DNA of 33,953 bases from a virus (taxonomy: Duplodnaviria > Heunggongvirae > Uroviricota > Caudoviricetes), in the IMG/VR virus record IMGVR_UViG_2534682338_000010, positions 1 through 33,953 of that record; one strand, 5' to 3'. Every line of letters begins with the position of its first letter. Position 1 is the stretch's first letter. The notes under the pieces are model-generated. The model saw nothing but the letters and a program-made list of their open reading frames with translations. It did no database searches and was not told the origin of the DNA. Below are positions 4,773-33,668 of the stretch, piece after piece. A program made the translations under genes and the position numbers.

Positions 4773-5126
4773 TTATCCATTCCATCGTGATTTTTTCGAT
4801 CTGGAATCGATATGCGTAAAGGTTTTATATTTGCCTAAGCCGTATTGAGTAGGGTATTTCCCATCAAGATAAGCATGGACAATATCAGGGGAGACACCCT
4901 TGATCACAATGTCAGCCGCACGGCCTCGAACGTGATAGCTGTTGGTTGCACCGCCTACATTCTTGTTATGAGTCGGGCAACGGTTGCCACTGTTAATAAT
5001 CACTGGTTTACCGAAGTGCTCTCGTACATCCTCAAGAATTACCAGTAATTCAGCGTCGATTGTATCATAATCACATTTTCCGCATTTACATTTAAATTCC
5101 TTGCGAGAAAAATGTTTGCTTAACAT
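4773..5126 (-). CDS. endolysin, peptidase M15 family (zinc D-Ala-D-Ala carboxypeptidase / L-Ala-D-Glu peptidase fold)
   Basis: SGNRCPTHNKNVGGATNSYHVRGRAADI...THID matches the His/Asp zinc-ligand pattern of the M15 family; last gene of the late operon. Confidence 0.75.
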   Translation of the reverse strand: MLSKHFSRKEFKCKCGKCDYDTIDAELLVILEDVREHFGKPVIINSGNRCPTHNKNVGGATNSYHVRGRAADIVIKGVSPDIVHAYLDGKYPTQYGLGKYKTFTHIDSRSKKSRWNG

Positions 5127-5135
5127 ATTACCCCC

Positions 5136-5483
5136 TTAGATCATTTCGAAGATATAACCAATAAAGCGCATACCCTTGATATAATAAGGAGCAGTGCCTA
5201 CACACACCGCGCGTGCATCACCCAGACAGTTAAAGCTATAAGGATTAACCACATCAACTTCTTGTCCTACACGAAAACGATACTTAGGACGTTTAGCCAA
5301 TGTAGCGACACAAAACACGGTCCCTTTTTCATGATCGCGGATACATTCTTTATATTGTTTATGTTTAACTCTCTTCGCCTCAAAATCATGTGTCATGGAT
5401 TCTGGGCTAATGCCATTAATAAAAATACCGGAAAGCTGGTCGACCGGATAAGTAGGAAATTCAGTGAAAATATTTTTAGCCAT
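5136..5483 (-). CDS. hypothetical protein
   Basis: 115-aa ORF tightly packed in the operon. Confidence 0.5.
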   Translation of the reverse strand: MAKNIFTEFPTYPVDQLSGIFINGISPESMTHDFEAKRVKHKQYKECIRDHEKGTVFCVATLAKRPKYRFRVGQEVDVVNPYSFNCLGDARAVCVGTAPYYIKGMRFIGYIFEMI

Positions 5484-5521
5484 GTTATACCCCCATAAGA
5501 TTCTATGAGGGTATTTATGTA

Positions 5522-6205
5522 TTAAACGTATCTCATGCGCGATTTAATGTGCTTATTAATGTTCTTAAGCATCATTTCCTCGTTGCTTTCCCACGATCCT
5601 AGCGTCGAATAACGAGTAGAAATTTTATCCGACTTAACGGCAACAATTCGCTTACTCTGTTTCTGTGTGCGTTTCTCTAAGCGACGTTTTGCCACCGCCG
5701 ATCCATTCTTAGCGCGTTTGGTTCTGGATTTCTTAGGCTTGTACTTCTTCATGATAAAAGTCCCTTCCTTATTCTCTACCTTGATGAAGTTGCCATTTTC
5801 GATGTTACGCATCATCTTACCGCCTTTGATGGCCTTAATGTTCCCGTGGGCGTCTAAGACCTTACCGTTAGCGATTGGCACTAGCTTATTGATTTTGCCC
5901 CCATCGAAATAGTGTTTCAGATAGTCGTCCTGACTGCCGATCTTCTTGTCCTTATCCCTTGCGCCCTTAATGAAGATTTGGTGTCTCGTCCCTGAACGGT
6001 TCTTGTAGTTGGTATTACCTACAGCTTGCTGAGTCCAGCGAGTAGGTCTATCAACATTCTTGTTAATCTTCTTCTGTAGTGCACGAGCAGCAAAGATCGC
6101 CCCTTCCCCTATCGCCCTTTCGAATGTATCGGTTGCCTTTTCAGACCATTGCCGTAACGCTTTCTTAGTCCTTAGAGCGTTTCGTTTATTGGTACTGGTT
6201 GCCAT
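5522..6205 (-). CDS. hypothetical highly basic (Lys/Arg-rich) protein
   Basis: 227-aa ORF; very basic composition suggests nucleic-acid binding; no motif recognised. Confidence 0.55.
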   Translation of the reverse strand: MATSTNKRNALRTKKALRQWSEKATDTFERAIGEGAIFAARALQKKINKNVDRPTRWTQQAVGNTNYKNRSGTRHQIFIKGARDKDKKIGSQDDYLKHYFDGGKINKLVPIANGKVLDAHGNIKAIKGGKMMRNIENGNFIKVENKEGTFIMKKYKPKKSRTKRAKNGSAVAKRRLEKRTQKQSKRIVAVKSDKISTRYSTLGSWESNEEMMLKNINKHIKSRMRYV

Positions 6206-6780: not shown

Positions 6781-9700
6781 TTAAGAAACAGTAATACCGG
6801 TAGTTGCTTTTTTAGTTACCATTACCGTTAAATCACTGATCCATGTGCTAGGCGTCCAGTTGTTGATTGCGCTTGATTGCACTTCAAAGGTCAAGGTCAC
6901 AGCACCCTTACCCGCTGGCATATCAATAACACCTGAGTAAAGACCAGTATTACCGCCATACGCCCTATTATACAACTCTGACCCATTCTTACGAACAATC
7001 AGGCGACAGGTGTCGTAATAGGTATTATTGTTCGACCCTTCACGCGCTCGCAATCCACCAAAACTAACAGCCGGAATAACGATTTGACGATCGAACTTGT
7101 GATCATCTTCAACGCGAACAGTGACCGTTCCCTGTGGATAACCAGCATAACCATTATCAACGTTAACATCACGATGCGGGAACTTACGTCCAATCACCTT
7201 AACGAAATCACCCTTAACCTGAGTAGCTTCAAGCATACCCTTAATAACACAGCTAGAGTTAATCGTGACGTTGTTCAGAGTACCAGAATCAGCAGTGATA
7301 TTACCTTTAACGGTTGCATTCATGAACGTAGCGGACCCGTTCTTGTTGATATGCCATCCGGTGGACCCGTTCCAGTTGGAAGACTGGATATAGTTACCGA
7401 TTTTAGCGTTATCAATTGCACCGTTTACGATCTTCGCGTTAGTGATTGCCCCGTCCTGAATCTTCGCGCTGTTAATTGCAGCATTGCCGATTTTAGCCGT
7501 GGTAATTGCCGCATCATTAATCTGGGCTGTACCAATTGCAGCATTACGAATCATCGCATTATCGAGATAAACCTTGTTACCTTCGATACCAAACGGGCAT
7601 ACTTCCGATCCGTTCTGTGGAGCTACCGCGATTTTATCAGCATTAAAGATGATTCTCGTCGGTTGTGCCGGATCGTTGGTTGCGCTCATGTGAATACCAG
7701 CCACGCGACCATCTGCATTAACCGCCAGATTATATTTGCTGTTAATGGTTCCCTTCAAAGCATCGATTTTTACATCTGCTTCCTGATTCACGCCAGCAAT
7801 CTTGCCATCCATTTCTACCCGAACTTGATCAATCTTGCTTGCGCTTGCTGCCTCACTGGTAGCAATTGCTTGTTTCAGGGTAGTAGCAGATGCGCTAACT
7901 TCTTTGGTGATATCGCCTTTCAATTCAGCTTTAACCTGGTCGATCTTAGTGGAACTTGCTTGATCACCAGAGACAATCAGACTCTTGAGAGTATCGGCTG
8001 AGGCTTGCACCGTCTGCCCTGTTTCTGTAGTGATTTGCTTATGCATTGCATCAATTTTAGCATCGGCATTAGCGCCAGCTTGAGCAATAGCATCAGCGAT
8101 GGTTTCATCTAAGCGATCTTGTAAACCAATCAGGTCTTCCAGTGCTTCTTTGTCCTGATCGTCCCAGCTAATTGTAGATCTCATTTGCATGAAATAAGGT
8201 TCAGACCAAACAGCATCATCCATACCGAAAATATCGTAATGTGCCGCACGAAGATAATAATCACCATCAGCCAAATCAAAGGAAGTATGGCTAACACTAT
8301 TCGTGCTTACTGCCCTTGCATCGGAGAAAGTGTTATCGGTTGCATACTGGATGATTGACCCTGCATAATCATGTTCTACGTCATCTGCCCAGCTAACAAA
8401 CACACTATTAAAGCCACCACGCGCACTAAAACCTTTCATTGGCTTATGTTGTGGGTTGATAGCCACTAAACGCGCTGGGGCGCTCTCTGAGTTGTTATAG
8501 CCCTTAGCCGATACTTCTACCGTCAGTTGACGCGAAAGGCCGTTAAACTGGTTCATATCAAGCGTATAAGTCCATGATTCAGGATCGCGGGTACGGTACT
8601 GAATAGACTTACCAGCCTTGTTAGTCACCTTGATAATGTATGCTTCAAACAGGTCACTAAACTTGTTAGTTTCACCGTTGATCTCAACATCTAAGCCTTG
8701 CTGGTTTTCCCATTCGATAATCAGATCATTACCTTCGAAAGTTCCTGGCGTGCTACCCTGATTTTTGATTCGAATAACCGGAGTCGGCAATTCATAGGTA
8801 ACAGTCGGATTCTGGTTAATCAGTTCTACCCAATCGGATCGAGCGATGATACCGAAAGCACAAACTCGGTAATCATAAGAGCGATCTTTTGCCAGTGCAT
8901 TGACACTGAAAATTTGCTGTGAAGTCTGTCCCAGCTTAATCCAGTTAGGCGATCCACTTACACGGTAATCAATCTGGAAGCCGTAGCGGTTAAAATCTTC
9001 CGGTGCATCCCATGTCAAAGTAACGTTTTTACCGTAAATCGTCTCACCAGTTGCCTTAATCCTGAAATTAGTAGGCTTCTGTACTGTCATTGAATCCGGT
9101 AAACCACTTGGTCTATTGTCTGGAGTTGCCGCATAGTTCAGGTCAGTATAAACCTGAGAATTATATTCTGTGGCGGTGATCGTCATCATCCCAGCAATAC
9201 CAGAATCAATCGAGCGGTCAATTGCAGTAATACGCCAAAGTGAATTATTCAGTTTTAATTCATCATAGGTTACGCTGATAACGTCCCAAACTTCGGCAGT
9301 GAATGCGTCAGTAGTCATAAAGCTGATAACCTGAGTGATACGAGATTTATTTCGCTCAATGCTCGCGAGTTTATCAATCTGATCTTTAGACTTAACGAAA
9401 CGATATTCTACATCCTTAGCAATAATTCGACCATCTGCGCGAACAGTAGCATCGTTTTCAGCATCAGCCGGATAACGTAGCATTTGCTCTGAATAGTCAA
9501 TTGATGGTTCTTGATACATCGCGTTAATGGTATTGAAATAACCGTTAGTGCCACCTGTTTTCAGTGATACCTTACCCATCATGATATTGTCTTCATTGAA
9601 GGTATGCTTAACAATATCAGGAGCATCCAGTTTCAGCGTAATACGTCCAAAGGATTCGAACATCACCCCGCCGAAAGTCTGCATAAGATTAGTCAAGTTC

Positions 9701-10557
9701 TCTTTAAAGCTGGCGTTCGGATCACATGCACCGTTTGAATGTAGATCCATCTGGCGTACTTGTTTACGTACTTTCAGGAATGAATCAACGTTAATGTTTT
9801 CAATTGGTACGGATAAGCCATATTTTTCATTTGTTAGGTAGTGGAAAATCTGATCCACGCCGTTAGTGCTAGCCTCAATAGCATTGGTTTCAAGGTTACG
9901 GATTTTAAGGCCGCAAACGTCTACTGCTACCTGGCTATTTGGCTGGAGAATATCAACACCAGCAGCAAGAGATTTGTCATCACGACGTAACACAATACAC
10001 ATGGTCGCAATGCCGTTACCCTTGAAAGCGTCGGTCCAGTCTGAGCCTAAATGACGTTTTGCCAGCGACAAAGCGGTGTTAGGATTCTTGCCCGTGCGGA
10101 ACTCGACTTCTAATACTTTACGATATTCTTCTTTAATGTTGCCCTTATCGAGAATACCATCACGGATCGTCATGTTCTTACCAACAAGAACATTTTTATT
10201 ATCAATAAAGAGTGCTTTGTAATGGTCGATTTCACCCTCGGCTACAGAGAAGATTTGCACTAGCTTATTGTTTTCTTGCTTAGAAACTGCTTTGTAAACA
10301 CAGTTTGTGCCAGTGCGGGTAGTACCGAAAACGACTGGTATCACCGCTTTCGGATCGTTTGATGTTCCTAGTGTCACCGCATTATCTGGGCTTTGTACTT
10401 TAGGTGTTTTTGGTGCGCCTACAGTGGAAGCGATCAAAGTCATTGCACCAGCAGCCATACCGATAGCGACTGCGGTCATAACAGAAAATGTTGCAGCAGC
10501 AGCCATCCCAGCAGACGCACCAGCAATAACCGCGCCTACCAATACTTCAAATCCCAT
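6781..10557 (-). CDS. central tail fibre / host-specificity protein (lambda J-like) with fibronectin-III-like regions and C-terminal repeat array
   Basis: 1258 aa; position after the tail-tip genes; repeated xAAIxxAKI units near residues 1005-1055; hydrophobic Gly/Ala-rich N-terminus. Confidence 0.75.
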   Translation of the reverse strand: MGFEVLVGAVIAGASAGMAAAATFSVMTAVAIGMAAGAMTLIASTVGAPKTPKVQSPDNAVTLGTSNDPKAVIPVVFGTTRTGTNCVYKAVSKQENNKLVQIFSVAEGEIDHYKALFIDNKNVLVGKNMTIRDGILDKGNIKEEYRKVLEVEFRTGKNPNTALSLAKRHLGSDWTDAFKGNGIATMCIVLRRDDKSLAAGVDILQPNSQVAVDVCGLKIRNLETNAIEASTNGVDQIFHYLTNEKYGLSVPIENINVDSFLKVRKQVRQMDLHSNGACDPNASFKENLTNLMQTFGGVMFESFGRITLKLDAPDIVKHTFNEDNIMMGKVSLKTGGTNGYFNTINAMYQEPSIDYSEQMLRYPADAENDATVRADGRIIAKDVEYRFVKSKDQIDKLASIERNKSRITQVISFMTTDAFTAEVWDVISVTYDELKLNNSLWRITAIDRSIDSGIAGMMTITATEYNSQVYTDLNYAATPDNRPSGLPDSMTVQKPTNFRIKATGETIYGKNVTLTWDAPEDFNRYGFQIDYRVSGSPNWIKLGQTSQQIFSVNALAKDRSYDYRVCAFGIIARSDWVELINQNPTVTYELPTPVIRIKNQGSTPGTFEGNDLIIEWENQQGLDVEINGETNKFSDLFEAYIIKVTNKAGKSIQYRTRDPESWTYTLDMNQFNGLSRQLTVEVSAKGYNNSESAPARLVAINPQHKPMKGFSARGGFNSVFVSWADDVEHDYAGSIIQYATDNTFSDARAVSTNSVSHTSFDLADGDYYLRAAHYDIFGMDDAVWSEPYFMQMRSTISWDDQDKEALEDLIGLQDRLDETIADAIAQAGANADAKIDAMHKQITTETGQTVQASADTLKSLIVSGDQASSTKIDQVKAELKGDITKEVSASATTLKQAIATSEAASASKIDQVRVEMDGKIAGVNQEADVKIDALKGTINSKYNLAVNADGRVAGIHMSATNDPAQPTRIIFNADKIAVAPQNGSEVCPFGIEGNKVYLDNAMIRNAAIGTAQINDAAITTAKIGNAAINSAKIQDGAITNAKIVNGAIDNAKIGNYIQSSNWNGSTGWHINKNGSATFMNATVKGNITADSGTLNNVTINSSCVIKGMLEATQVKGDFVKVIGRKFPHRDVNVDNGYAGYPQGTVTVRVEDDHKFDRQIVIPAVSFGGLRAREGSNNNTYYDTCRLIVRKNGSELYNRAYGGNTGLYSGVIDMPAGKGAVTLTFEVQSSAINNWTPSTWISDLTVMVTKKATTGITVS

Positions 10558-14727: not shown

Positions 14728-15069
14728 TTAACCGCTTCTGAGTTTCTCAAGCAAAGATGGATCAAACATGTTCAGCATTGCCGCTTTACGTTCTTCTTCT
14801 TTCTTGCGTGCAAGTTCTTCCAGTTCTTCTTTAGTTTTAAAGAGTTTTTCTTCTCTAATTAATTGGAATTGGCTAGGCTTGAGTTTCTTTGCAGTTTCAC
14901 GAGTCATTCCTTGTGACGTCATATACATGGAATATTGCAACATCGCATTCTGCATATCATGAAACGCGGGGCTTTGTGGTTCTAAGTAGGTGTCGAAAAT
15001 GTATAATTTCCAAAACAGAGTGATTGGCATATTATCCATTTCATCTTTACTAAGCCCCGATCGCATCAT
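14728..15069 (-). CDS. tail assembly chaperone (T-like partner)
   Basis: 113-aa ORF directly upstream of the tape-measure gene; no good SD; -1 frame relative to the preceding chaperone ORF. Confidence 0.45.
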   Translation of the reverse strand: MMRSGLSKDEMDNMPITLFWKLYIFDTYLEPQSPAFHDMQNAMLQYSMYMTSQGMTRETAKKLKPSQFQLIREEKLFKTKEELEELARKKEEERKAAMLNMFDPSLLEKLRSG

Positions 15070-15098
15070 TTGCCGAAAATAGAAATTCAGAAGCGGGT

Positions 15099-15407
15099 TT
15101 ACTTTACCTCGTTTTCAATTACTGCCGGATCTTGCATCAATGATGCTTGAGCAACCAAACCGATTAATTCACTACGGACGTTAGTATACAGTGCCTTAAC
15201 TTGTTCCATAGATTCAAATACTGGTTTACCGTCTTCATCTTCAATACAACGAAGAATCGAACGTTCATCACGGTCTTCTTTATCAGTATTGAAAACATGT
15301 TCGTTAAATTCTTTTACCGACATAGGGCGAGCATAGAAAGTAAATCCACCGATGGTTAAAGATTCACGTTTCGGAGAAAGGGCTTTCAGCATTTCATTAA
15401 TATTCAT
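15099..15407 (-). CDS. tail assembly chaperone (G-like)
   Basis: 102-aa acidic ORF at the canonical position upstream of the tape-measure gene. Confidence 0.5.
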   Translation of the reverse strand: MNINEMLKALSPKRESLTIGGFTFYARPMSVKEFNEHVFNTDKEDRDERSILRCIEDEDGKPVFESMEQVKALYTNVRSELIGLVAQASLMQDPAVIENEVK

Positions 15408-15449: not shown

Positions 15450-15956
15450 TTAAGAGATTTTCAAAGTCTGCTTAGTGCCAGTCTTCTTAATGTTGGTAAG
15501 GAAAGCAGCCGGAGGATTGCTTAACCAGTAGTAATGAAAACCACTTTGCATACTGTTATAAGGAACAGTGACAGCAGCACCACCCAAATTAACGGTTATA
15601 TTCCCCGCTCTACCATTCTGGAGATATACAGCCATAGTAGGAGTACCACCATTGAATTGACCAACGATAACGCCAATCAGACGCCCTACGCCCACGTTTT
15701 CGGGGTTCTCCATAGATCCTTTACCGCGCATGTCAGTTACTGGATAGTTTGAAGCAGTTACACCCCAGTTATTACCCAATGAAGTAGACCACGCAGCAGT
15801 AGCTACAACCGTATCCATACCACGACCACACATCGCACTCATGTTAGCTGGGCGACTAACCTTTAATGCGTTCATTGCTGCGCTCATCCATCGTTGACCA
15901 GTTACAGAAACAGCAGATGACCCGACCCAGCCAGGCTTATTAACGACATTCGCCAT
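15450..15956 (-). CDS. tail-associated structural protein (Gly/Asn-rich)
   Basis: 168-aa ORF; GGAG SD 8 nt upstream; follows the terminator after the putative tube gene. Confidence 0.5.
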   Translation of the reverse strand: MANVVNKPGWVGSSAVSVTGQRWMSAAMNALKVSRPANMSAMCGRGMDTVVATAAWSTSLGNNWGVTASNYPVTDMRGKGSMENPENVGVGRLIGVIVGQFNGGTPTMAVYLQNGRAGNITVNLGGAAVTVPYNSMQSGFHYYWLSNPPAAFLTNIKKTGTKQTLKIS

Positions 15957-15971
15957 TTTGATTACTCCAAT

Positions 15972-15999
15972 AAAAAAGCCCCACCATTAAGGCAGGGCT
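15972..15999 (-). terminator. intrinsic terminator (homologous to the one after the capsid gene)
   Basis: minus-strand hairpin GCCCUGCC-UUAA-GGUGGGGC with a G-U pair, followed by UUUUUU. Confidence 0.65.
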
Positions 16000-16004
16000 T
16001 ATAA

Positions 16005-16124
16005 TTAATCTTTAGCCTTGCGGCTTCGTTTAGCTGTGGCTTTCGCCGTAACTTCTTCTACTTCTGGAATCACCACCGCTTCATGTTCCGGCTGTGGTTC
16101 CGGTTCGGGAAGTTCTTCGAAAGT
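16005..16124 (-). other. in-frame post-TGA extension of the putative tail-tube gene (39 codons then TAA)
   Basis: frame 0 after TGA (16125-16127) is open: TFEELPEPEPQPEHEAVVIPEVEEVTAKATAKRSRKAKD; homologous to the capsid extension. Confidence 0.45.
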
Positions 16125-16601
16125 TCAAGCGGCAGTATTGAAGATTTGCTGTTTCAGCGGAGCACCATCAACGGCAAAGGTAAACTCTTTAGTTACCACT
16201 TCTTCATCGCCACCGTTCATAGCAACTTTAGAAATGAAGCCGTTGTACGCAATGCGAATACCAGTCTGTTTTCCGGCGTCAACATAATACTCTACTTTGA
16301 TCTGGCAGCGAGTGCCGTCTTCGGCAGCTTTTGCGAGCTTCTCGTGTACCGCATCACCTGGGATGTAGTTAACGGTCAGAGTCAGATCTTCAACGTTCAG
16401 TTTACCAACCAGCTTACGGTTATACTGAGAAGAATACGATTTGACTTCTACCGTCCCGCGAGACAGTGAATATTCAGGAAAACCAGCACACTCTTTAATT
16501 TCTTCGTATGCTTCATCAGCAAGATCGGTGTTAGTGGTATCAGCGTGATAGAACAGACTTACCAGACCACCAGTAAAAATATCTTTAAATTGTTGAGACA
16601 T
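16125..16601 (-). CDS. putative major tail tube protein
   Basis: 158 aa; size typical of siphovirus tube proteins; followed by a strong terminator; ends with TGA. Confidence 0.5.
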   Translation of the reverse strand: MSQQFKDIFTGGLVSLFYHADTTNTDLADEAYEEIKECAGFPEYSLSRGTVEVKSYSSQYNRKLVGKLNVEDLTLTVNYIPGDAVHEKLAKAAEDGTRCQIKVEYYVDAGKQTGIRIAYNGFISKVAMNGGDEEVVTKEFTFAVDGAPLKQQIFNTAA

Positions 16602-16657: not shown

Positions 16658-19600
16658 TTATTTAGTTGCTTTCAGTTCGGCTAATTCAGCTTTAGTTTCG
16701 GCAAGTTCTTTAGCCATAGCATCAAACTTAGCGGTCATTTCCTGCATTGCTTTGATGATTAAAGCATTGACAGCAGAGTTAGAAATAGTCTTGATTGCTT
16801 CTGGATGTTCTGGATCTTCGGTGGATTGAATACCTACTGCTTCCGGCAATACTTTTTCCAGATCCTGAGCAATAATACCTACTTCGCGTTTAATCACCGT
16901 GTCATCGGAAAGAGATTTAACTTTATCGTAGGTGTAGACTTTCAGTGAGTTTACTTTCTCTAATGCGCCGTCCTGTAATTCTTCCTTGTTAATTTTCAAA
17001 CGGGAGTCGGAGCGAATGTAAACATCGTTAAACGAACCGTTACGACCTGCGGTAAAGTCACCAGCAGCGTTAAAGTCAAAAGTTGCATCGTGTACGTGCA
17101 TACGCACCATAGCATTTCCGATAGTACCGCTAGGAACATGTACACCCATTGCTGCGATATGATATTTACCTTGATGGGTTGCTTTCCATACGTTATGAGC
17201 GGAATCGGTTGATTGTTGACAGTCGACCTGAATACCAGAAGCACGATCACGCCAGCTAGTCCAACTACCGCCAGCAACAGAACCACGAATCAGACCATTA
17301 CCGCCACCGGAAACAGTACCCGTTTCAAGTTGAATCATCTTACCGCCGAATTTCCAGACTTCGGTTTGTTTCTCACCGCGCATACGCATAACGCCAGCAT
17401 CATCGCAGTACAACAGACCCAATTCTAAGCCATTTGGATCTCTAAACCACAAATGCTTATTGCCACTGCGACGAAACTCAATATCAGCACCGTTAAGCGT
17501 GATATTACCGCCAGTGTGAATTGCTTTAGGTTTAACAGTACCGTTGATGGCAAACTCGATTAATTCAGTACCCGGACCGCCCGGTCGTTGTGTGTACCAG
17601 TGCCAACCGCTTTCGTCCGCACATTCGAATACTTGTTTACGAGCATCAGCACCCCACGCACGGATATTAAAGCTAGAAGTAGCTGTATTTTTGCCCCACG
17701 TTAATTTTCCTTCGGTAGTTAAATCCCCTCGGAAATGAGCAAGTAAGCCACCAGTACCGTTACGTTCTGTAGTAAAGTGAGTTCCGCTAGTGTCCTGGAA
17801 TTGCAAAACGTTATATCGATTGGCATTACTATTCCCCCAATGGTTAATCGTAAAAGAATCCATCGACTGATTTCCACCAGCAGAGAAAGTAAGCAGTCCT
17901 TTTTCTAAGAATACATTGTTGCTAAAACGGGCAGCACGGCTATCTCTTTCAAGAACTAATGCACCTTCGTTACCATCACCGCCTAAAGTAACTTTACCGT
18001 TAGTCAAATCGTAAATGAACGGTCTGTTTCCATTCCATCCGCCCAATTTATCATTTTCGGCAGTAGAAAGAAGATAAACTTTACCACCGTCATTACGCCA
18101 GAATGCACCATAATTACCGTAGATCATGCGGTAGGCGTCGCTATTCATTGAGATGAATTGAGCGTTAGTATAAACTCGTTTTGTGTTACCGGTTGCAAGT
18201 TCGATCTGTCCGTCGATGTGGTGACGAATAGAAGTACCACCTACATCACTATACCATTCAAAAACGTTAGTATCAGCATTACCATAACCGATCCACCCTT
18301 GACGGGTAATAGATCCAGTACGATTATCTTGAAACGCAATATGGTTGGATTGACCAGCAGGACGCCGCAAGGTAATAACATTACTACCTCCACCCAACAT
18401 CATTCGACCAGAAAGAATATTACCTTTATGAGTCCCAGCAATAGAGCTACTAGATTCAACGGATAGAATCTCCTGAGCATCTGTACTACCCGTGGCGAGT
18501 CGATAAGTAGAACCCTGAACCGTCTCATGCCAGATCATTTCGTTATAGTTGCTACGGAATTTACGAATATATTTTCGTCCAGTACCTCTATCATTGCTTA
18601 GATGAACAATGTCATAGCTGTTTTGTGTATTGTCGTCAAAACTCAACACACCACGTTTATTTTCTGTGTTAAAAAGAGTTACGTTGCGACCACCGATAAC
18701 ACCAACGGAAGGTTTAATTAACGTGGCTTCCGGCGTATCATAAACCGTCAAACTTACATAAACAGATTTCCCATATTCGACAATGACGTTATCGGTATAA
18801 CGCTGATATTTCACGTAGATATCATAGTTATCACCGGAAGTATTGACAGCAAATACCTCAAAATCTTTGTTTGTATTTCTACGGTATGCAATTACGTTAA
18901 GACCTTTAGGTCTATCGTTACCACTACGGAGAAGAATTTCTACTACATCAACTTGGTCATATGCCGTAACGTTGTAACCATTACCACCATGAATACGGAA
19001 AAACACACTACGCCCGTTTTGTGGAATTGTTGCGGTTGCCAATTTGAAATATGCAGATACGTTTTCGCTAGAATTGGGAACAGACATAACGACGTTTTTA
19101 ACAAACATCTTATCAACTTCGGCTTTGGTGTATGCACCAATCTCGCCAGGAGTCGGCTTATCACCTTCGTGATACATCTTATAGCTAAAGTTCTTCTGTC
19201 CTTCTCTATCAAAACCATAGGTTTCAACACGAGATCCACCAGACGCATAACGGAAAGTAAATCCGCGACCGTGCGCTTTACCGGCAGAGTGAGGAACGTT
19301 AAGAGTTAGATCCATGAGTCCATCTTGACCATTGGTACGGAAAGCACCAAAGTAGTTAAGATCTCTCGCTGTCTGGTCTTCCAAATAGTTAGCTGTTTTG
19401 GTTAACAGATAGCCGTGATGGTAAGTGTTGGTATTCTTCTTGATGTAAGCAGCATCGGCACTACCTTCAATAGAATCAATTCGCTGGTTAGCTGCGGCAA
19501 TTGCGGCATCAGTAGAAGATTTATTCTGGTCTACCTTGTTGTTAATTGCTGTATGGTTGCTATTAACTGTCCCCGTAAGATTGGTGATCTTCGTGTCGGC

Positions 19601-20194
19601 ATCTTTCTTATTATCCGCTACCGTCTTTTCTATTGCTGATTTATTTGCTTCGACAGTATTCGTTAAGTTGGTAACGTTGGTATTCGTCTGATCAACCCGC
19701 GCATTAATATCTGTCTTGTTCTTGTTAATTGTCGCGTTGATAGTATCGCGGGTTGAAGTAATAGTCTGATTCAGTTCAGTCTTAGCAGCCGCCAGAGCGT
19801 TAGCAGCTTCGGTTTTATTGTTACCTACTGTGGTAGTCAAAGCATCAATTCGTTTGTTGGCTGCGGTATCGCCAGCAGTGATTGAAGCATTGAGAGTATC
19901 ACGGGTAGAAGTGATAGTCTGATTCAGTTCAGCTTTAGCACTAGCCAGATTATTAGCGGCTTCTTGTTTGTTGGAAGCAATAACACGGTCAGTGCTAGTT
20001 TTGTTATTGTCTACTTTCGTATTCAGTTCAGCGTGTTTTTCTGGAGAAACACTAATTTGGACTACGTTATTATTTTTGTCTTTGGTGTAAATCACATGAT
20101 CCGCCAACTGTAAGGCGATTTCACCCTGTGATAATTGTTCCGGCGTTGGTTTTTTACCCGCCGTCTGTGTGCGTTTAAATTGGATCGACTGCAT
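16658..20194 (-). CDS. fibre protein with coiled-coil repeat shaft and C-terminal intramolecular chaperone (S74-like autoproteolytic) domain
   Basis: 1178 aa; N-terminal repeated NQTITSTRDT-type heptad units; C-terminal DSRLKINKEEL...VYTYDK...GIIAQDLEKVLPEAV typical of self-cleaving fibre chaperone domains. Confidence 0.75.
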   Translation of the reverse strand: MQSIQFKRTQTAGKKPTPEQLSQGEIALQLADHVIYTKDKNNNVVQISVSPEKHAELNTKVDNNKTSTDRVIASNKQEAANNLASAKAELNQTITSTRDTLNASITAGDTAANKRIDALTTTVGNNKTEAANALAAAKTELNQTITSTRDTINATINKNKTDINARVDQTNTNVTNLTNTVEANKSAIEKTVADNKKDADTKITNLTGTVNSNHTAINNKVDQNKSSTDAAIAAANQRIDSIEGSADAAYIKKNTNTYHHGYLLTKTANYLEDQTARDLNYFGAFRTNGQDGLMDLTLNVPHSAGKAHGRGFTFRYASGGSRVETYGFDREGQKNFSYKMYHEGDKPTPGEIGAYTKAEVDKMFVKNVVMSVPNSSENVSAYFKLATATIPQNGRSVFFRIHGGNGYNVTAYDQVDVVEILLRSGNDRPKGLNVIAYRRNTNKDFEVFAVNTSGDNYDIYVKYQRYTDNVIVEYGKSVYVSLTVYDTPEATLIKPSVGVIGGRNVTLFNTENKRGVLSFDDNTQNSYDIVHLSNDRGTGRKYIRKFRSNYNEMIWHETVQGSTYRLATGSTDAQEILSVESSSSIAGTHKGNILSGRMMLGGGSNVITLRRPAGQSNHIAFQDNRTGSITRQGWIGYGNADTNVFEWYSDVGGTSIRHHIDGQIELATGNTKRVYTNAQFISMNSDAYRMIYGNYGAFWRNDGGKVYLLSTAENDKLGGWNGNRPFIYDLTNGKVTLGGDGNEGALVLERDSRAARFSNNVFLEKGLLTFSAGGNQSMDSFTINHWGNSNANRYNVLQFQDTSGTHFTTERNGTGGLLAHFRGDLTTEGKLTWGKNTATSSFNIRAWGADARKQVFECADESGWHWYTQRPGGPGTELIEFAINGTVKPKAIHTGGNITLNGADIEFRRSGNKHLWFRDPNGLELGLLYCDDAGVMRMRGEKQTEVWKFGGKMIQLETGTVSGGGNGLIRGSVAGGSWTSWRDRASGIQVDCQQSTDSAHNVWKATHQGKYHIAAMGVHVPSGTIGNAMVRMHVHDATFDFNAAGDFTAGRNGSFNDVYIRSDSRLKINKEELQDGALEKVNSLKVYTYDKVKSLSDDTVIKREVGIIAQDLEKVLPEAVGIQSTEDPEHPEAIKTISNSAVNALIIKAMQEMTAKFDAMAKELAETKAELAELKATK

Positions 20195-20271: not shown

Positions 20272-21105
20272 TTAATACTCACCGAAATCGATCCGGTCCG
20301 TCTTAGCCACTGCGCCAATTTCGCTAGGTGTCGGTTTCTCATTGGTGGAATATACCTTGATCCATTCAGAACGACCGTTTTCCTGAATATTTCGGACACG
20401 TAAACGCGGTGCGCCAGAAGTATTACAGGTTAATTGCCATGCGCCATGCTCATTAGCTTGAAGGTGAATTAACGATGTATCAGCACCATAAGGGTTAGTG
20501 CTAGCCGTTCCTTTGTAGGTTACGAAACGGTTTCCTGCTAATGCCTCGCTATCAATACCGCCCGTGAATGGATGTACACCTGCACCCAAACCAAAATCAC
20601 CCTGACGTAAGATCCGGCCTTCGGTAGCAATACCCCTTGCCAAAATCCCGCCATCTGGTTCAAGTTTAAATTCCAGTGTTACAGCTTTGTTATCACTACC
20701 ACGGGTTTTATGTGATGTGACGTAAGCATCGAATATACAAAAGTACCCTGTGTTAGCAGCACTATAGCCAGAGTTCACAACATAGAACATACGGAAGCGT
20801 AAAGGTGTTTTATCCTCTACCGCTTTCATCAACATTGCTTGATGTTCATCGTCAAGAACACGGTTTAACGTGAGTGTTGTCGGTTCCAGTCTACGATAAC
20901 CAGCAAGTTTCCCCGTAGCGTCCTGATCGTACTCTTCCAGAGTTTCAATCTCTGTGGATTCGGTTAGCGTAGGGAATGCTGCGATGTTCTCAATAGAACT
21001 AAAGCTAGGATCGAAAAAGTCGACCTGATTGTCTATCTGGTTAGAGATCGACACTTCAACATGCGACCCCGTGAAAATGTCTAAGTTATCTTGTGTAATA
21101 TTCAT
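20272..21105 (-). CDS. tail/neck structural protein (possible tube or fibre-anchoring protein)
   Basis: 277 aa; C-terminus shares the motif KPTPSEIGA with the 1178-aa fibre. Confidence 0.5.
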   Translation of the reverse strand: MNITQDNLDIFTGSHVEVSISNQIDNQVDFFDPSFSSIENIAAFPTLTESTEIETLEEYDQDATGKLAGYRRLEPTTLTLNRVLDDEHQAMLMKAVEDKTPLRFRMFYVVNSGYSAANTGYFCIFDAYVTSHKTRGSDNKAVTLEFKLEPDGGILARGIATEGRILRQGDFGLGAGVHPFTGGIDSEALAGNRFVTYKGTASTNPYGADTSLIHLQANEHGAWQLTCNTSGAPRLRVRNIQENGRSEWIKVYSTNEKPTPSEIGAVAKTDRIDFGEY

Positions 21106-21114
21106 TATTACCCC

Positions 21115-21537
21115 TTAAAAACGCGCTAGATAAGAAAATTTAAGGCTAAGTGTCCCAACGATACCACCATCACTAGAATCATCGTCATAATCGGTATTAG
21201 AAGCTACTGGAGTGATATCTGAAATTGAGAAGCCCAAATCTTTAAAACGTGGGTTATCCGGCTGAATCTGGATTATCTGGCAAATACCCTCATGAATTTT
21301 CGTTTCATGAATCTGAGAATATAACTGCATTTCGATAACGCATTCAGCTTGCATTGCATTACCGCCACGGACCCTAGTGTAAGTCTCATTCATTCCGGTG
21401 ATCCAACAAACCACGTCATCACTAAAGCCTTGCTGAGTTTGTTCTACGTTTAAAGCCAGACCTAAATCTTGTTCGATAATATCCTGCAAGGCGCGTTTGA
21501 TTTTCAGTCTAGGCATATTATTAACGGTAGCGAGCAT
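21115..21537 (-). CDS. head-tail joining / tail completion protein
   Basis: ATG at 21537 preceded by AGGGGG with 6-nt spacing; overlaps the upstream gene end by 17 nt. Confidence 0.45.
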   Translation of the reverse strand: MLATVNNMPRLKIKRALQDIIEQDLGLALNVEQTQQGFSDDVVCWITGMNETYTRVRGGNAMQAECVIEMQLYSQIHETKIHEGICQIIQIQPDNPRFKDLGFSISDITPVASNTDYDDDSSDGGIVGTLSLKFSYLARF

Positions 21538-21811
21538 GTGTACCCCCTGCCAGAGTGATAAAGCAATCAGTTGTATTGTCACCATTGCGCTTAACGTATT
21601 GAACTTTGAAACGCTGATTTTCTACAGTGACAATATCACCCTGCTTTAAGTCTCCCTCACGACAGAATAGAAATTCTGTTTCTGTCATTACCCCTTGTTC
21701 GTCGGTAGTAGTAATTTCATGATAAGCACGAATTGATTTACCACCTTCCACCGAAAATACAGGAGCACTTCGGAACATTCTTGATAATTGTGATTCTGAT
21801 AATTTGAACAT
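21521..21811 (-). CDS. head completion / head-tail adaptor protein
   Basis: 96 aa; AAGGGGG SD 5 nt upstream of the ATG; first gene after the capsid terminator. Confidence 0.45.
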   Translation of the reverse strand: MFKLSESQLSRMFRSAPVFSVEGGKSIRAYHEITTTDEQGVMTETEFLFCREGDLKQGDIVTVENQRFKVQYVKRNGDNTTDCFITLAGGTHARYR

Positions 21812-21841: not shown

Positions 21842-21868
21842 AAAAAAGCCCCACCGTTAGGCAGGGCT
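21842..21868 (-). terminator. intrinsic terminator after the capsid gene
   Basis: minus-strand hairpin AGCCCUGCC-UAAC-GGUGGGGCU followed by UUUUUUG, starting 2 nt after the tandem stops. Confidence 0.65.
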
Positions 21869-32442: not shown

Positions 32443-33384
32443 ATGTTATTTTCCGCTAACTTTTTCACTAACGAAGTAACCAACGCTAAAGCAGTTATCA
32501 AATTTGGCACCGAAGCAAACAAGAAGATTCAGCCGAAAGTTGTTGCTCATGTTTCCTTTGCGCAGCAGAAATCCGCCTTCGCTGGCTTTAAAGCACATCG
32601 TGAAGCACTGATCGCGGCTGGCTTTGGTGTTGACGGTAAACTGCCTAACGGCATTCGTAAAGCAATCGACCGCGTTAAACCTGCTAAAGACGTTGCAGTA
32701 GACCACATCGTTACTTTTACCGTTAAGAACTCTTCTGAACTGTTCCACCTGGTTATTGCTGGTGATACTGCTATCGTTTCCGCTCCTAACATGGATTTTC
32801 AGGATACCGCTGATTGCCAGATCACCTTCGGTCGTCGTAAAGAAGTTACCGGAAAAGCTAAACTGAACTTCACTAAATCTGGCAATCCTTACTTTGCTGT
32901 TTTCTTTAACAGCCACGCTACCGAAAAAGAAGTTGTAGAACTGGTTGCTTATGAAGGTGAAGAGAAAGAACGTATTGAATCTTGCGAAGCATTTCTGGAA
33001 CTGGAAGCACAGGTGAATGCTGTTTCTCCGGTTGTTGAAGATCGCTTTGCTGCACTGGAAGCACAGATCGCAGAACTGAAAGCTGCACTGGAAGAAAAAG
33101 ACCAGATTATCGAAGCACAGAAAGCTGAGATTGAAGAACTGAAAGCTAAAGAAGTTGCTCCGGTAGCAGTAGTTGAAAACGCGGCTGATGAGGCCGCAAA
33201 TGATGAAGTAGAAGTGAAAATCGATGTGATGCGTGATCCGATGGCTGCACTGCAATTACTTCGTTCTTTTAAGGGCAAATCTCATTTTTCTAGTGATGTA
33301 GAAGATGAGGAAGAAGAACAGAAACGCAATGCTGCAATGCTTCATGATGAAATGTACGGTACTAACTTTTCTTACTGCCAATAA
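32443..33384 (+). CDS. abundant early-type protein with central coiled coil and acidic C-terminal region
   Basis: 313 aa; codon usage strongly skewed to high-expression codons (CTG, GAA, AAA, CGT, GGT); coiled-coil segment LEAQIAELKAALEEKDQIIEAQKAEIEELKAKE. Confidence 0.7.
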   Translation: MLFSANFFTNEVTNAKAVIKFGTEANKKIQPKVVAHVSFAQQKSAFAGFKAHREALIAAGFGVDGKLPNGIRKAIDRVKPAKDVAVDHIVTFTVKNSSELFHLVIAGDTAIVSAPNMDFQDTADCQITFGRRKEVTGKAKLNFTKSGNPYFAVFFNSHATEKEVVELVAYEGEEKERIESCEAFLELEAQVNAVSPVVEDRFAALEAQIAELKAALEEKDQIIEAQKAEIEELKAKEVAPVAVVENAADEAANDEVEVKIDVMRDPMAALQLLRSFKGKSHFSSDVEDEEEEQKRNAAMLHDEMYGTNFSYCQ

Positions 33385-33668
33385 AAAAAGGGACTCCGAA
33401 GAGTCCCTAGTAAGTTTAGGTTAGGTTTGCGCAACAAAGATGAGGTTATAATGAACATAATGCTACATTATTCTTTAAAGCCAGAAAAATAACCGCCCCC
33501 GAAGGGGCGGGAGGATTAATACTCAATCTATACTTGTTATGTTTTTATGTTGTATAGTCACTGACTATGAAAACACTGTACTGAATGTGTTTTATGGCTT
33601 TTAATCGGGAACTCTCTTTCGAAAGCCCCCTGTTAAAACCACATAAGGAGAAATGGCAGATTACAATA

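Follow-up and report, generated by a model that had tools for sequence, protein, structure and literature searches.

The window analysed here is a stretch of 33,953 nucleotides of Caudoviricetes DNA (IMG/VR record IMGVR_UViG_2534682338_000010, positions 1 to 33,953), and the gene in question encodes a tail fibre of 1178 amino acids (aa). We consider it fairly probable, from sequence comparison and structure modelling, that this fibre makes up the distal part of a lateral tail fibre built from two pieces, with a paralogue of the tail tube protein as its anchor. The predicted anchor is a 277-aa protein whose gene (20272-21105, minus strand) lies directly upstream of the fibre gene. An earlier reading of the same DNA, hereafter the original prediction, had suggested a neck-attached fibre from the position of the gene. 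The fibre open reading frame (ORF) on which it was based is genuine, being ATG-initiated at 16658-20194 on the minus strand, whereas the link to the neck has to be revised, as discussed later in the text. The features on which the argument depends are as follows.

16658..20194, minus strand: fibre gene, encoding a gp37-type long-tail-fibre distal subunit (ATG-initiated ORF; phrog_1699 'long tail fiber distal subunit', E 2.6e-142)
20042..20194, minus strand: fibre aa 1-51, gp37-type N-terminal domain and predicted docking end (phrog_1699 positions 6-51, E 8.6e-17)
19460..20029, minus strand: fibre aa 56-245, alpha-helical coiled-coil spacer (composition and hydrophobic period)
17012..19411, minus strand: fibre aa 262-1061, gp37-like shaft and tip (BLASTP; Pfam Gp34_trimer at aa 638-728, E 3.3e-23)
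16661..17011, minus strand: fibre aa 1062-1178, C-terminal intramolecular chaperone Peptidase_S74 (Pfam PF13884, aa 1062-1120)
20626..21105, minus strand: 277-aa protein aa 1-160, tail-tube-fold domain (paralogy, AlphaFold2 (AF2) and Foldseek)
20275..20625, minus strand: 277-aa protein aa 161-277, fibre-like extension with a gp36-type terminus, ...KPTPSEIGAVAKTDRIDFGEY (alignment with ECD7 gp36)
16125..16601, minus strand: major tail tube protein, 158 aa (phrog_158, E 1.7e-20; weak matches to Pfam tube families)
15976..16000, minus strand: terminator-like hairpin after the tube gene, near-identical to the hairpin after the capsid gene (21847-21868)
15450..15956, minus strand: gp38-type tail-fibre adhesin, 168 aa (Pfam Gp38_N, E 1.9e-15; phrog_1121 'tail fiber adhesin', E 2.1e-33)

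In its N-terminal part, the 277-aa protein is related to the 158-aa tube protein, with 29% identity over 157 aa (E 2e-17). The AF2 model of this domain has block means of the predicted local distance difference test (pLDDT) mostly between 72 and 93, and its strands at residues 118-135 and 143-162 form a long beta-hairpin. Its best Foldseek match in the PDB is the lambda tail tube protein gpV (8k36_A, E 7e-8), the top tube matches ranging from E 7e-8 to 1e-6, and a fold search of BFVD with the 277-aa protein returned ordinary tube proteins only. A sequence search of the PDB yielded two chance-level, unrelated matches for the 277-aa protein and none for the 158-aa protein. A role of the 277-aa protein as tail terminator was considered and rejected, since its best structural matches are tube proteins and the terminator role is filled by the neighbouring gpU-like protein of 140 aa.

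The C-terminal extension of the same protein points to the fibre. Its last 73 aa align end-to-end with the C-terminus of gp36 from Krischvirus ECD7 (33% identity, E 2e-5), and the terminal motif IDFGEY corresponds to IDFGTF in ECD7 gp36, DFGYY in T4 gp36 and IDFGLE in the homologue from the phage record DCP80. Weak PHROG matches of the extension were to tail and tail-fibre families. This is the only gp36-like terminus in the virion module of the window. The gp36 trimer of T4 binds to gp37 in the N-terminal region of the latter (PMC3004832); a search of the literature for a solved structure of this junction found none. Thus, with a gp36-type end on the tube paralogue and a gp37-type N-terminus on the fibre, both halves of the T4 joint appear to be present, one of them fused to a tube fold.

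The fibre itself is gp37-like at both ends. Its residues 1-51 are 39% identical to aa 4-54 of ECD7 gp37 (E 4e-10) and have the motif IQFKR..GE.A.. in common with T4 gp37, while residues 262-1175 show 79.5% identity, over 914 fibre residues, to aa 71-978 of ECD7 gp37 (BLASTP). The similarity is also seen at the DNA level, with ∼80% identity to several RB49-like phages and, against Krischvirus gp37, ∼80% identity for both nucleotides and amino acids. Between the two conserved parts, an insert of 210 aa (residues 52-261), mostly coiled coil, stands in for 16 residues of ECD7 gp37, so that the fibre can be regarded as a whole gp37 with a 210-residue insert. The spacer is rich in Ala, Thr and Asn at residues 56-245, where Pro and aromatic residues are absent and only four Gly occur, and both its length and its sequence differ among loci. 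Its hydrophobic period is 3.65 residues, which is of the 11-residue type rather than the 3.5 of a heptad; the periodicity power was 85.9, compared with 20.2 ± 11.9 in shuffled sequences, one of which scored higher. The heptad-repeat shaft of the original prediction is thus retained only as a coiled coil at about residues 56-245, with another period than that of heptads; judged by its sequence, the chain from residue 262 onward is a gp37-like shaft and not a coiled coil.

The C-terminal chaperone proposed originally was recovered by Pfam, PF13884 (Peptidase_S74) matching aa 1062-1120 with E 1.1e-13 and 51.7 bits for a cut-off of 22. The domain begins with the motif SDSRLK (1062-1067; SDARLK in ECD7 gp37), whose Ser-x4-Lys we take, following the endosialidase literature, to be the catalytic pair at the start of S74 domains, and it is predicted to be cut off at Ser1062. 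All 21 PHROG matches of the fibre were to tail, tail-fibre or unknown-function families, and no immunoglobulin (Ig)-like or OB anchor domain was detected in it by Pfam, PHROG or N-terminal profile searches. A word-index search for homologues of aa 1-279 gave partial E. coli proteins only.

The two tube-fold genes differ in their expression signature. The codon adaptation index of the 158-aa gene (0.519) equals that of the capsid gene (0.526) and exceeds that of every other gene examined, whereas that of the 277-aa gene (0.297) lies among the values of minor proteins; the two tube-fold genes have similar ribosome-binding sites. Moreover, the hairpins after the tube and capsid genes are both GC-rich, reading AGCCCTGCC...GGTGGGGCT followed by a T-run, and stand directly after the two genes with the highest codon adaptation. 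Taken together, codon adaptation and the shared terminator hairpin assign the role of major tube protein to the 158-aa protein and leave the 277-aa protein as a minor component.

Another property of the tube gene was observed at its 3' end. The gene ends with TGA followed by A, and a 39-codon in-frame extension (16005-16127, minus strand) stays open until just before the terminator hairpin. The extension is open at 36-41 codons in all eight loci with this layout (the window and seven relatives), its length differences are multiples of three, and its C-terminus AKRSRKAKD is kept with minor variants. The variant in E. coli TO6 has a TAA stop and no extension. This makes the TGA a candidate for programmed UGA readthrough, which would give a minor extended tube protein.

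The adhesin gene is found two genes downstream of the fibre gene, with the tube gene between them. Residues 7-48 of the adhesin are 71% identical to the N-terminus of RB49 gp38, and the remainder is ∼45% identical to adhesins of Stx phages; the Pfam match covers the N-terminal domain only. The RB49-like N-terminus of the adhesin matches the RB49-type tip of the fibre, and the two belong to one system. In E. coli TO6 (5016-6071), a gp38-type protein of 259 aa is encoded directly after the fibre, together with a 70-aa ORF, both ahead of the tube gene, which is there followed by G with nothing in between. Comparison of this layout with that of the window shows that the adhesin occupies alternative slots.

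Of 5426 complete E. coli genomes, 59 carry this element as a prophage in the chromosome, and the copy in E. coli PSJ-22 is 94.8% identical over the 10 kb compared; a search of the plasmid collection gave no match. Across nine E. coli loci the body of the fibre is strongly mosaic, while the first 50 residues of the fibre, which are its most conserved part, and the last residues of the anchor are kept. We counted this conservation of both ends of the joint, in contrast to the mosaic body, in favour of the anchor model. The 277-aa gene is under purifying selection in these loci, with ratios of non-synonymous to synonymous substitution rates (dN/dS) of 0.12 in the tube domain and 0.11 in the extension. 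At equal dN/dS, the dS of the extension is about three times that of the tube domain (1.03 versus 0.30), suggesting that the mosaic, recombining region starts inside the anchor gene.

Beyond the close relatives, the order terminator gene, tube-fold fibre gene, tube gene is kept in E. coli, Klebsiella, Leclercia and Serratia prophages, in an unassigned contig and in DCP80; four further contigs have the tube-fold gene in the same slot, between the genes of a ∼140-aa protein and a ∼150-aa tube protein. In two-piece loci, a separate distal fibre piece is encoded between the tube-fold gene and the tube gene. The Serratia homologue of the anchor has 1209 aa, matches Pfam Phage_T4_gp36 with 28.8 bits (cut-off 26) and is followed by a separate S74 protein of 490 aa. 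In one-piece relatives, the tube domain, a fibre of up to ∼1400 residues and the S74 chaperone form one chain, encoded in the same slot; since this is a single polypeptide, the tube domain is the anchor there.

To describe the breadth of the family, an exhaustive profile search with the 277-aa family was used, giving 282 matches, from which 149 representatives (50% identity clusters) were analysed. An N-terminal tube domain followed by an extension is found in 113 of them, with total lengths of 230-1563 aa. The S74-type Ser-x4-Lys motif occurs near the C-terminus in 31 of the 113, which is probably an underestimate because many others end in similar coiled-coil tails. The DFGxY-type terminus pattern was seen in nine among the representatives analysed, and several more have close variants. 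Among the named members are proteins of Serratia, Klebsiella, Leclercia, Pantoea and Kluyvera; Salmonella, Proteus, Edwardsiella and Providencia contribute closer homologues.

The virion module containing these genes is complete and is read on the minus strand from 28048 to ∼4773 (ORF calls with Pfam and PHROG searches). In the order of transcription, it starts with the large terminase, a 165-aa W-like protein, the portal and a 667-aa protease-capsid fusion, continues with the 96-aa FII-like, 140-aa, 277-aa, 1178-aa fibre, 158-aa tube and 168-aa proteins, and ends with the G- and T-like chaperones, an 809-aa tape measure, the distal tail protein, the hub, a DUF6950 protein and a 1258-aa J-like tip protein. 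Three further rows of this module bear on the attachment of the fibre.

21521..21811, minus strand: FII-like head-tail joining protein (stopper), 96 aa (Pfam Phage_attach, E 3.5e-5, 24.7 bits for a cut-off of 26; weak NCBIfam tail_join_FII match)
21115..21537, minus strand: tail terminator, gpU-like, 140 aa (AF2 mean pLDDT 77.9; Foldseek against the PDB)
6781-10557: J-like central fibre or tip protein, 1258 aa

The Foldseek matches of the 140-aa protein in the PDB include lambda gpU (3fzb), T5 p142, the monocin cap and the neck proteins of NF5 and E217, with E values from 1e-6 to 1e-4. The tail genes form a module of non-contractile type (tube, G/T chaperones, tape measure, distal tail protein, hub and J-like protein), and no gp34- or gp35-like ORF was found within the structural module. 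As originally noted, the fibre gene does not follow the tape-measure and tip genes, and its product is an appendage separate from the J-like central fibre. The gene also lies downstream of the head-tail genes and upstream of the tube gene, as had been stated; its immediate upstream neighbour, however, is the tube paralogue and not a head-tail joining gene, so that a tube-fold gene is found on either side of it.

Some observations on the surroundings were also made. The module is flanked by genes for a serine integrase, a helicase and an anti-repressor, and a large serine recombinase is encoded at 1279-2973 of the window on the plus strand. The PSJ-22 prophage adjoins a truncated ycdX gene (33192-33596 of the PSJ-22 locus), which suggests integration into ycdX. 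In the chaperone region (14728-15407), the T-like ORF (14728-15069, minus strand) lies close behind the G-like chaperone gene and has no recognisable ribosome-binding site before its ATG, as expected if it is made by a putative G-T frameshift. Promoter-like sites found by scanning were no more frequent than in shuffled sequences.

Judged from the gene order of its members, the position of the fibre gene is a defining trait of the lineage. The original prediction had named synteny in relatives as the evidence that could reveal a simple rearrangement of a side tail fibre; what relatives show, from the 59 E. coli genomes to the distant ones, is a conserved trait of the lineage and no such rearrangement. 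The simplest account of this position is that the tube gene was duplicated in tandem and subsequently fused to a fibre; the position is best read as reflecting that duplication and not a demonstrated association with the neck.

Taking the observed domain identities, paralogy, expression signature and synteny as given, we infer the docking, ring formation and stoichiometry described here. The S74 domain would drive folding and trimerisation of the fibre and then be cleaved at Ser1062. The gp38-type adhesin would cap the exposed tip, as in T2- and T6-type phages, in which the C-terminus of gp37 is cleaved and then capped by gp38 (PMC3157838). At the other end, the tube paralogue would offer its trimerised gp36-type C-termini as a dock for the gp37-type N-terminus, in the way that gp36 receives gp37 in T4, and the tube-fold domains of the paralogue would build a minor hexameric ring, or a few such rings, into the tail tube. 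From a ring within the tube, the fibres would project sideways and could mediate a reversible first binding to an outer-membrane receptor, the J-like protein acting as the central tip that triggers infection.

Several points weigh against this model. The likeness of the anchor to gp36 is confined to its last 73 residues and comes from one pairwise comparison, and Pfam PF03903 (Phage_T4_gp36) gives no match to the 277-aa protein at thresholds as loose as E 5. The KPTPxEIGA-motif module is also an internal repeat in many fibres, only the terminal DFGxY being specific for gp36-like termini. The AF2 model of the extension is poor, with pLDDT <50 for most residues (163-220). A symmetry mismatch arises as well, since a hexameric ring must feed trimeric fibres; by way of speculation, the six subunits of one ring could serve two trimers, and three stacked rings six trimers. 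Finally, the arrangement occurs in only one of 50,697 phage records, DCP80, which appears to be a chimeric assembly.

That record (PQ671644.1, filed under Gaprivervirus) was the only close relative that tblastn retrieved from queries with the capsid, tube and 277-aa proteins and with the N-terminus of a one-piece tube-fibre protein. It joins a siphovirus virion module at ∼1-22.5 kb to T4-like genes, including those for a T4-like capsid, sheath and gp37, and has rIIA and the nucleoid disruption protein (ndd) each annotated twice. From its gene content, it looks like a chimeric or scrambled assembly; a literature search found no paper that mentions DCP80.

Where along the tail such a ring would sit can be approached by comparison with the neck-fibre explanation, according to which the tube paralogue is the last ring under the gpU-like terminator and carries whisker-like fibres just below the neck. 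We regard a neck fibre as unlikely, even if structural gene order often follows virion position and every relative has the anchor gene immediately behind the terminator gene and ahead of the major tube gene. The association with neck, collar or whisker proteins suggested originally did not find support in Pfam or PHROG, where neither the fibre nor the 277-aa protein matches neck, collar or fibritin families, and the neck looks complete without the fibre, the 165-aa W-like, 96-aa FII-like and 140-aa gpU-like proteins separately accounting for its components and the terminator. A paralogue present only at the top would presumably need to sense the end of the tape measure, otherwise being incorporated anywhere. 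Moreover, rough estimates give a fibre of 80-90 nm and, from the 809-aa tape measure, a tail of ∼120 nm, so that a fibre attached at the neck would end short of the tail-tip plane. The siphophage side fibres of characterised structure that PMC13455828 lists all attach at the distal end. This precedent, the function of gp37 with gp38, and an assembly logic by which the initiator complex is the easiest place to add a specialised ring tip the balance slightly toward a ring beside the distal tail protein over one below the terminator. In its boldest form, the tube-ring model may still place the ring under the terminator, as gene order would favour, which would give a siphovirus with receptor-binding fibres just below the neck and would bear out the original prediction in part.

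Two other explanations separate or disperse the components of this model. The fibre could be an ordinary side tail fibre of the lambda Stf or T5 pb1 kind, attached by its N-terminus to the distal tail protein or to the J-like tip complex, the 277-aa protein being an unrelated decorated tube protein or a minor isoform comparable to lambda gpV Ig or SPP1 gp17.1*. Tube proteins with decorative C-terminal domains are indeed common, in line with the target lengths in the Foldseek and BFVD searches. Known siphophage side fibres sit around the distal tail protein or the tip (PMC13455828), and gp37-like modules are widely exchanged among temperate and virulent phages (PMC9659904). However, an ordinary side fibre is improbable here: the N-terminus belongs to the gp37 type, for which gp36 is the known partner, it carries no detectable Ig-like or OB anchor domain, the module offers a single gp36-like end, on the 277-aa protein, and the one-piece relatives join tube domain and fibre in one polypeptide. 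Alternatively, the tube paralogue might co-polymerise at random heights and leave a few fibres scattered along the tail. This would be the simplest outcome of a duplicated tube gene and would agree with the similar ribosome-binding sites, while codon adaptation points to a lower abundance of the paralogue. We consider scattered incorporation very improbable, because the paralogues have diverged to only 29% identity, all relatives examined, E. coli, Serratia and Klebsiella prophages among them, keep the anchor gene in its slot, indicating specialisation, and single random subunits would not be expected to unite three C-termini unless trimers form first. The fibre anchored on a specialised tube ring remains the reading that we prefer.

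Fibres set the host range of tailed phages, and engineering them needs knowledge of how they are attached. If the tube-ring model is true, this lineage has a new and genetically compact way of mounting fibres. The architecture is widespread, with at least 113 clusters (at 50% identity) in Enterobacterales prophages, in one-piece and two-piece forms, and the lineage is present in ∼1% of complete E. coli genomes as well as in Salmonella, Klebsiella, Serratia and other genera. The model would also explain the recurrent 'misplaced' fibre gene annotated as 'tail fiber domain-containing protein' beside a 'hypothetical protein'. Furthermore, the gp36-gp37-type joint of the two-piece form would be directly compatible with T-even modules, and temperate siphoviruses could then swap receptor-binding modules directly with T4-like virulent phages.

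In comparison with known systems, the neck passage structure of lactococcal phages and other collar or whisker proteins such as T4 fibritin resemble the present case only in their approximate genomic neighbourhood to the head-tail genes; no similarity of sequence or domain to them was detected, and the predicted anchor here is a tube fold. Decorated tube proteins (lambda gpV with its Ig-like domain, SPP1 gp17.1* and lactococcal TpeX) are closer, as they combine a tube fold with an outward C-terminal extension. The C-terminal extensions of such proteins help adsorption. However, these are small and globular, and are borne by the major tube protein or by a frameshift product, whereas here a separate, diverged paralogue of low expression carries a fibre joint. 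The siphophage-type side fibres (T5 pb1 with its p132 collar, Ur-lambda Stf, monocin and F-type pyocin) are likewise accessory trimeric fibres beside a central tip. T5 pb1 ends in an S74-type chaperone, and the fibre genes of these systems generally lie after the tip genes. The anchors published for them comprise a loop in the distal tail protein, dodecameric Ig-like rings that surround that protein or p140 (Ur-lambda and the T5 collar), and an OB domain on the central fibre; none of the four modes listed in a review passage of PMC13455828, a structural paper of 2026, is a tube fold. We think it somewhat better than an even chance that the fibres are anchored through a tube protein built into the tube as a specialised ring, which would be a mode of attachment undescribed for any studied phage.

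The closest counterpart is the distal half-fibre of T-even phages (gp36-gp37 with gp38, RB49/ECD7 type), with which the window has in common the gp37 N-terminus, shaft, tip and S74 domain, and a gp36-type end on the partner protein. It differs in that there is neither gp34 nor gp35, nor a contractile tail or baseplate, and the gp36-like end is fused to a siphovirus tube fold; in addition, the 210-aa insert follows the gp37 N-terminus, and the tube gene stands between the fibre gene and that of the adhesin. That T4-like and temperate phages exchange gp37-like modules is already known (PMC9659904). Thus, a gp37-like fibre in a siphovirus is in itself ordinary, and it is the anchor that is not.

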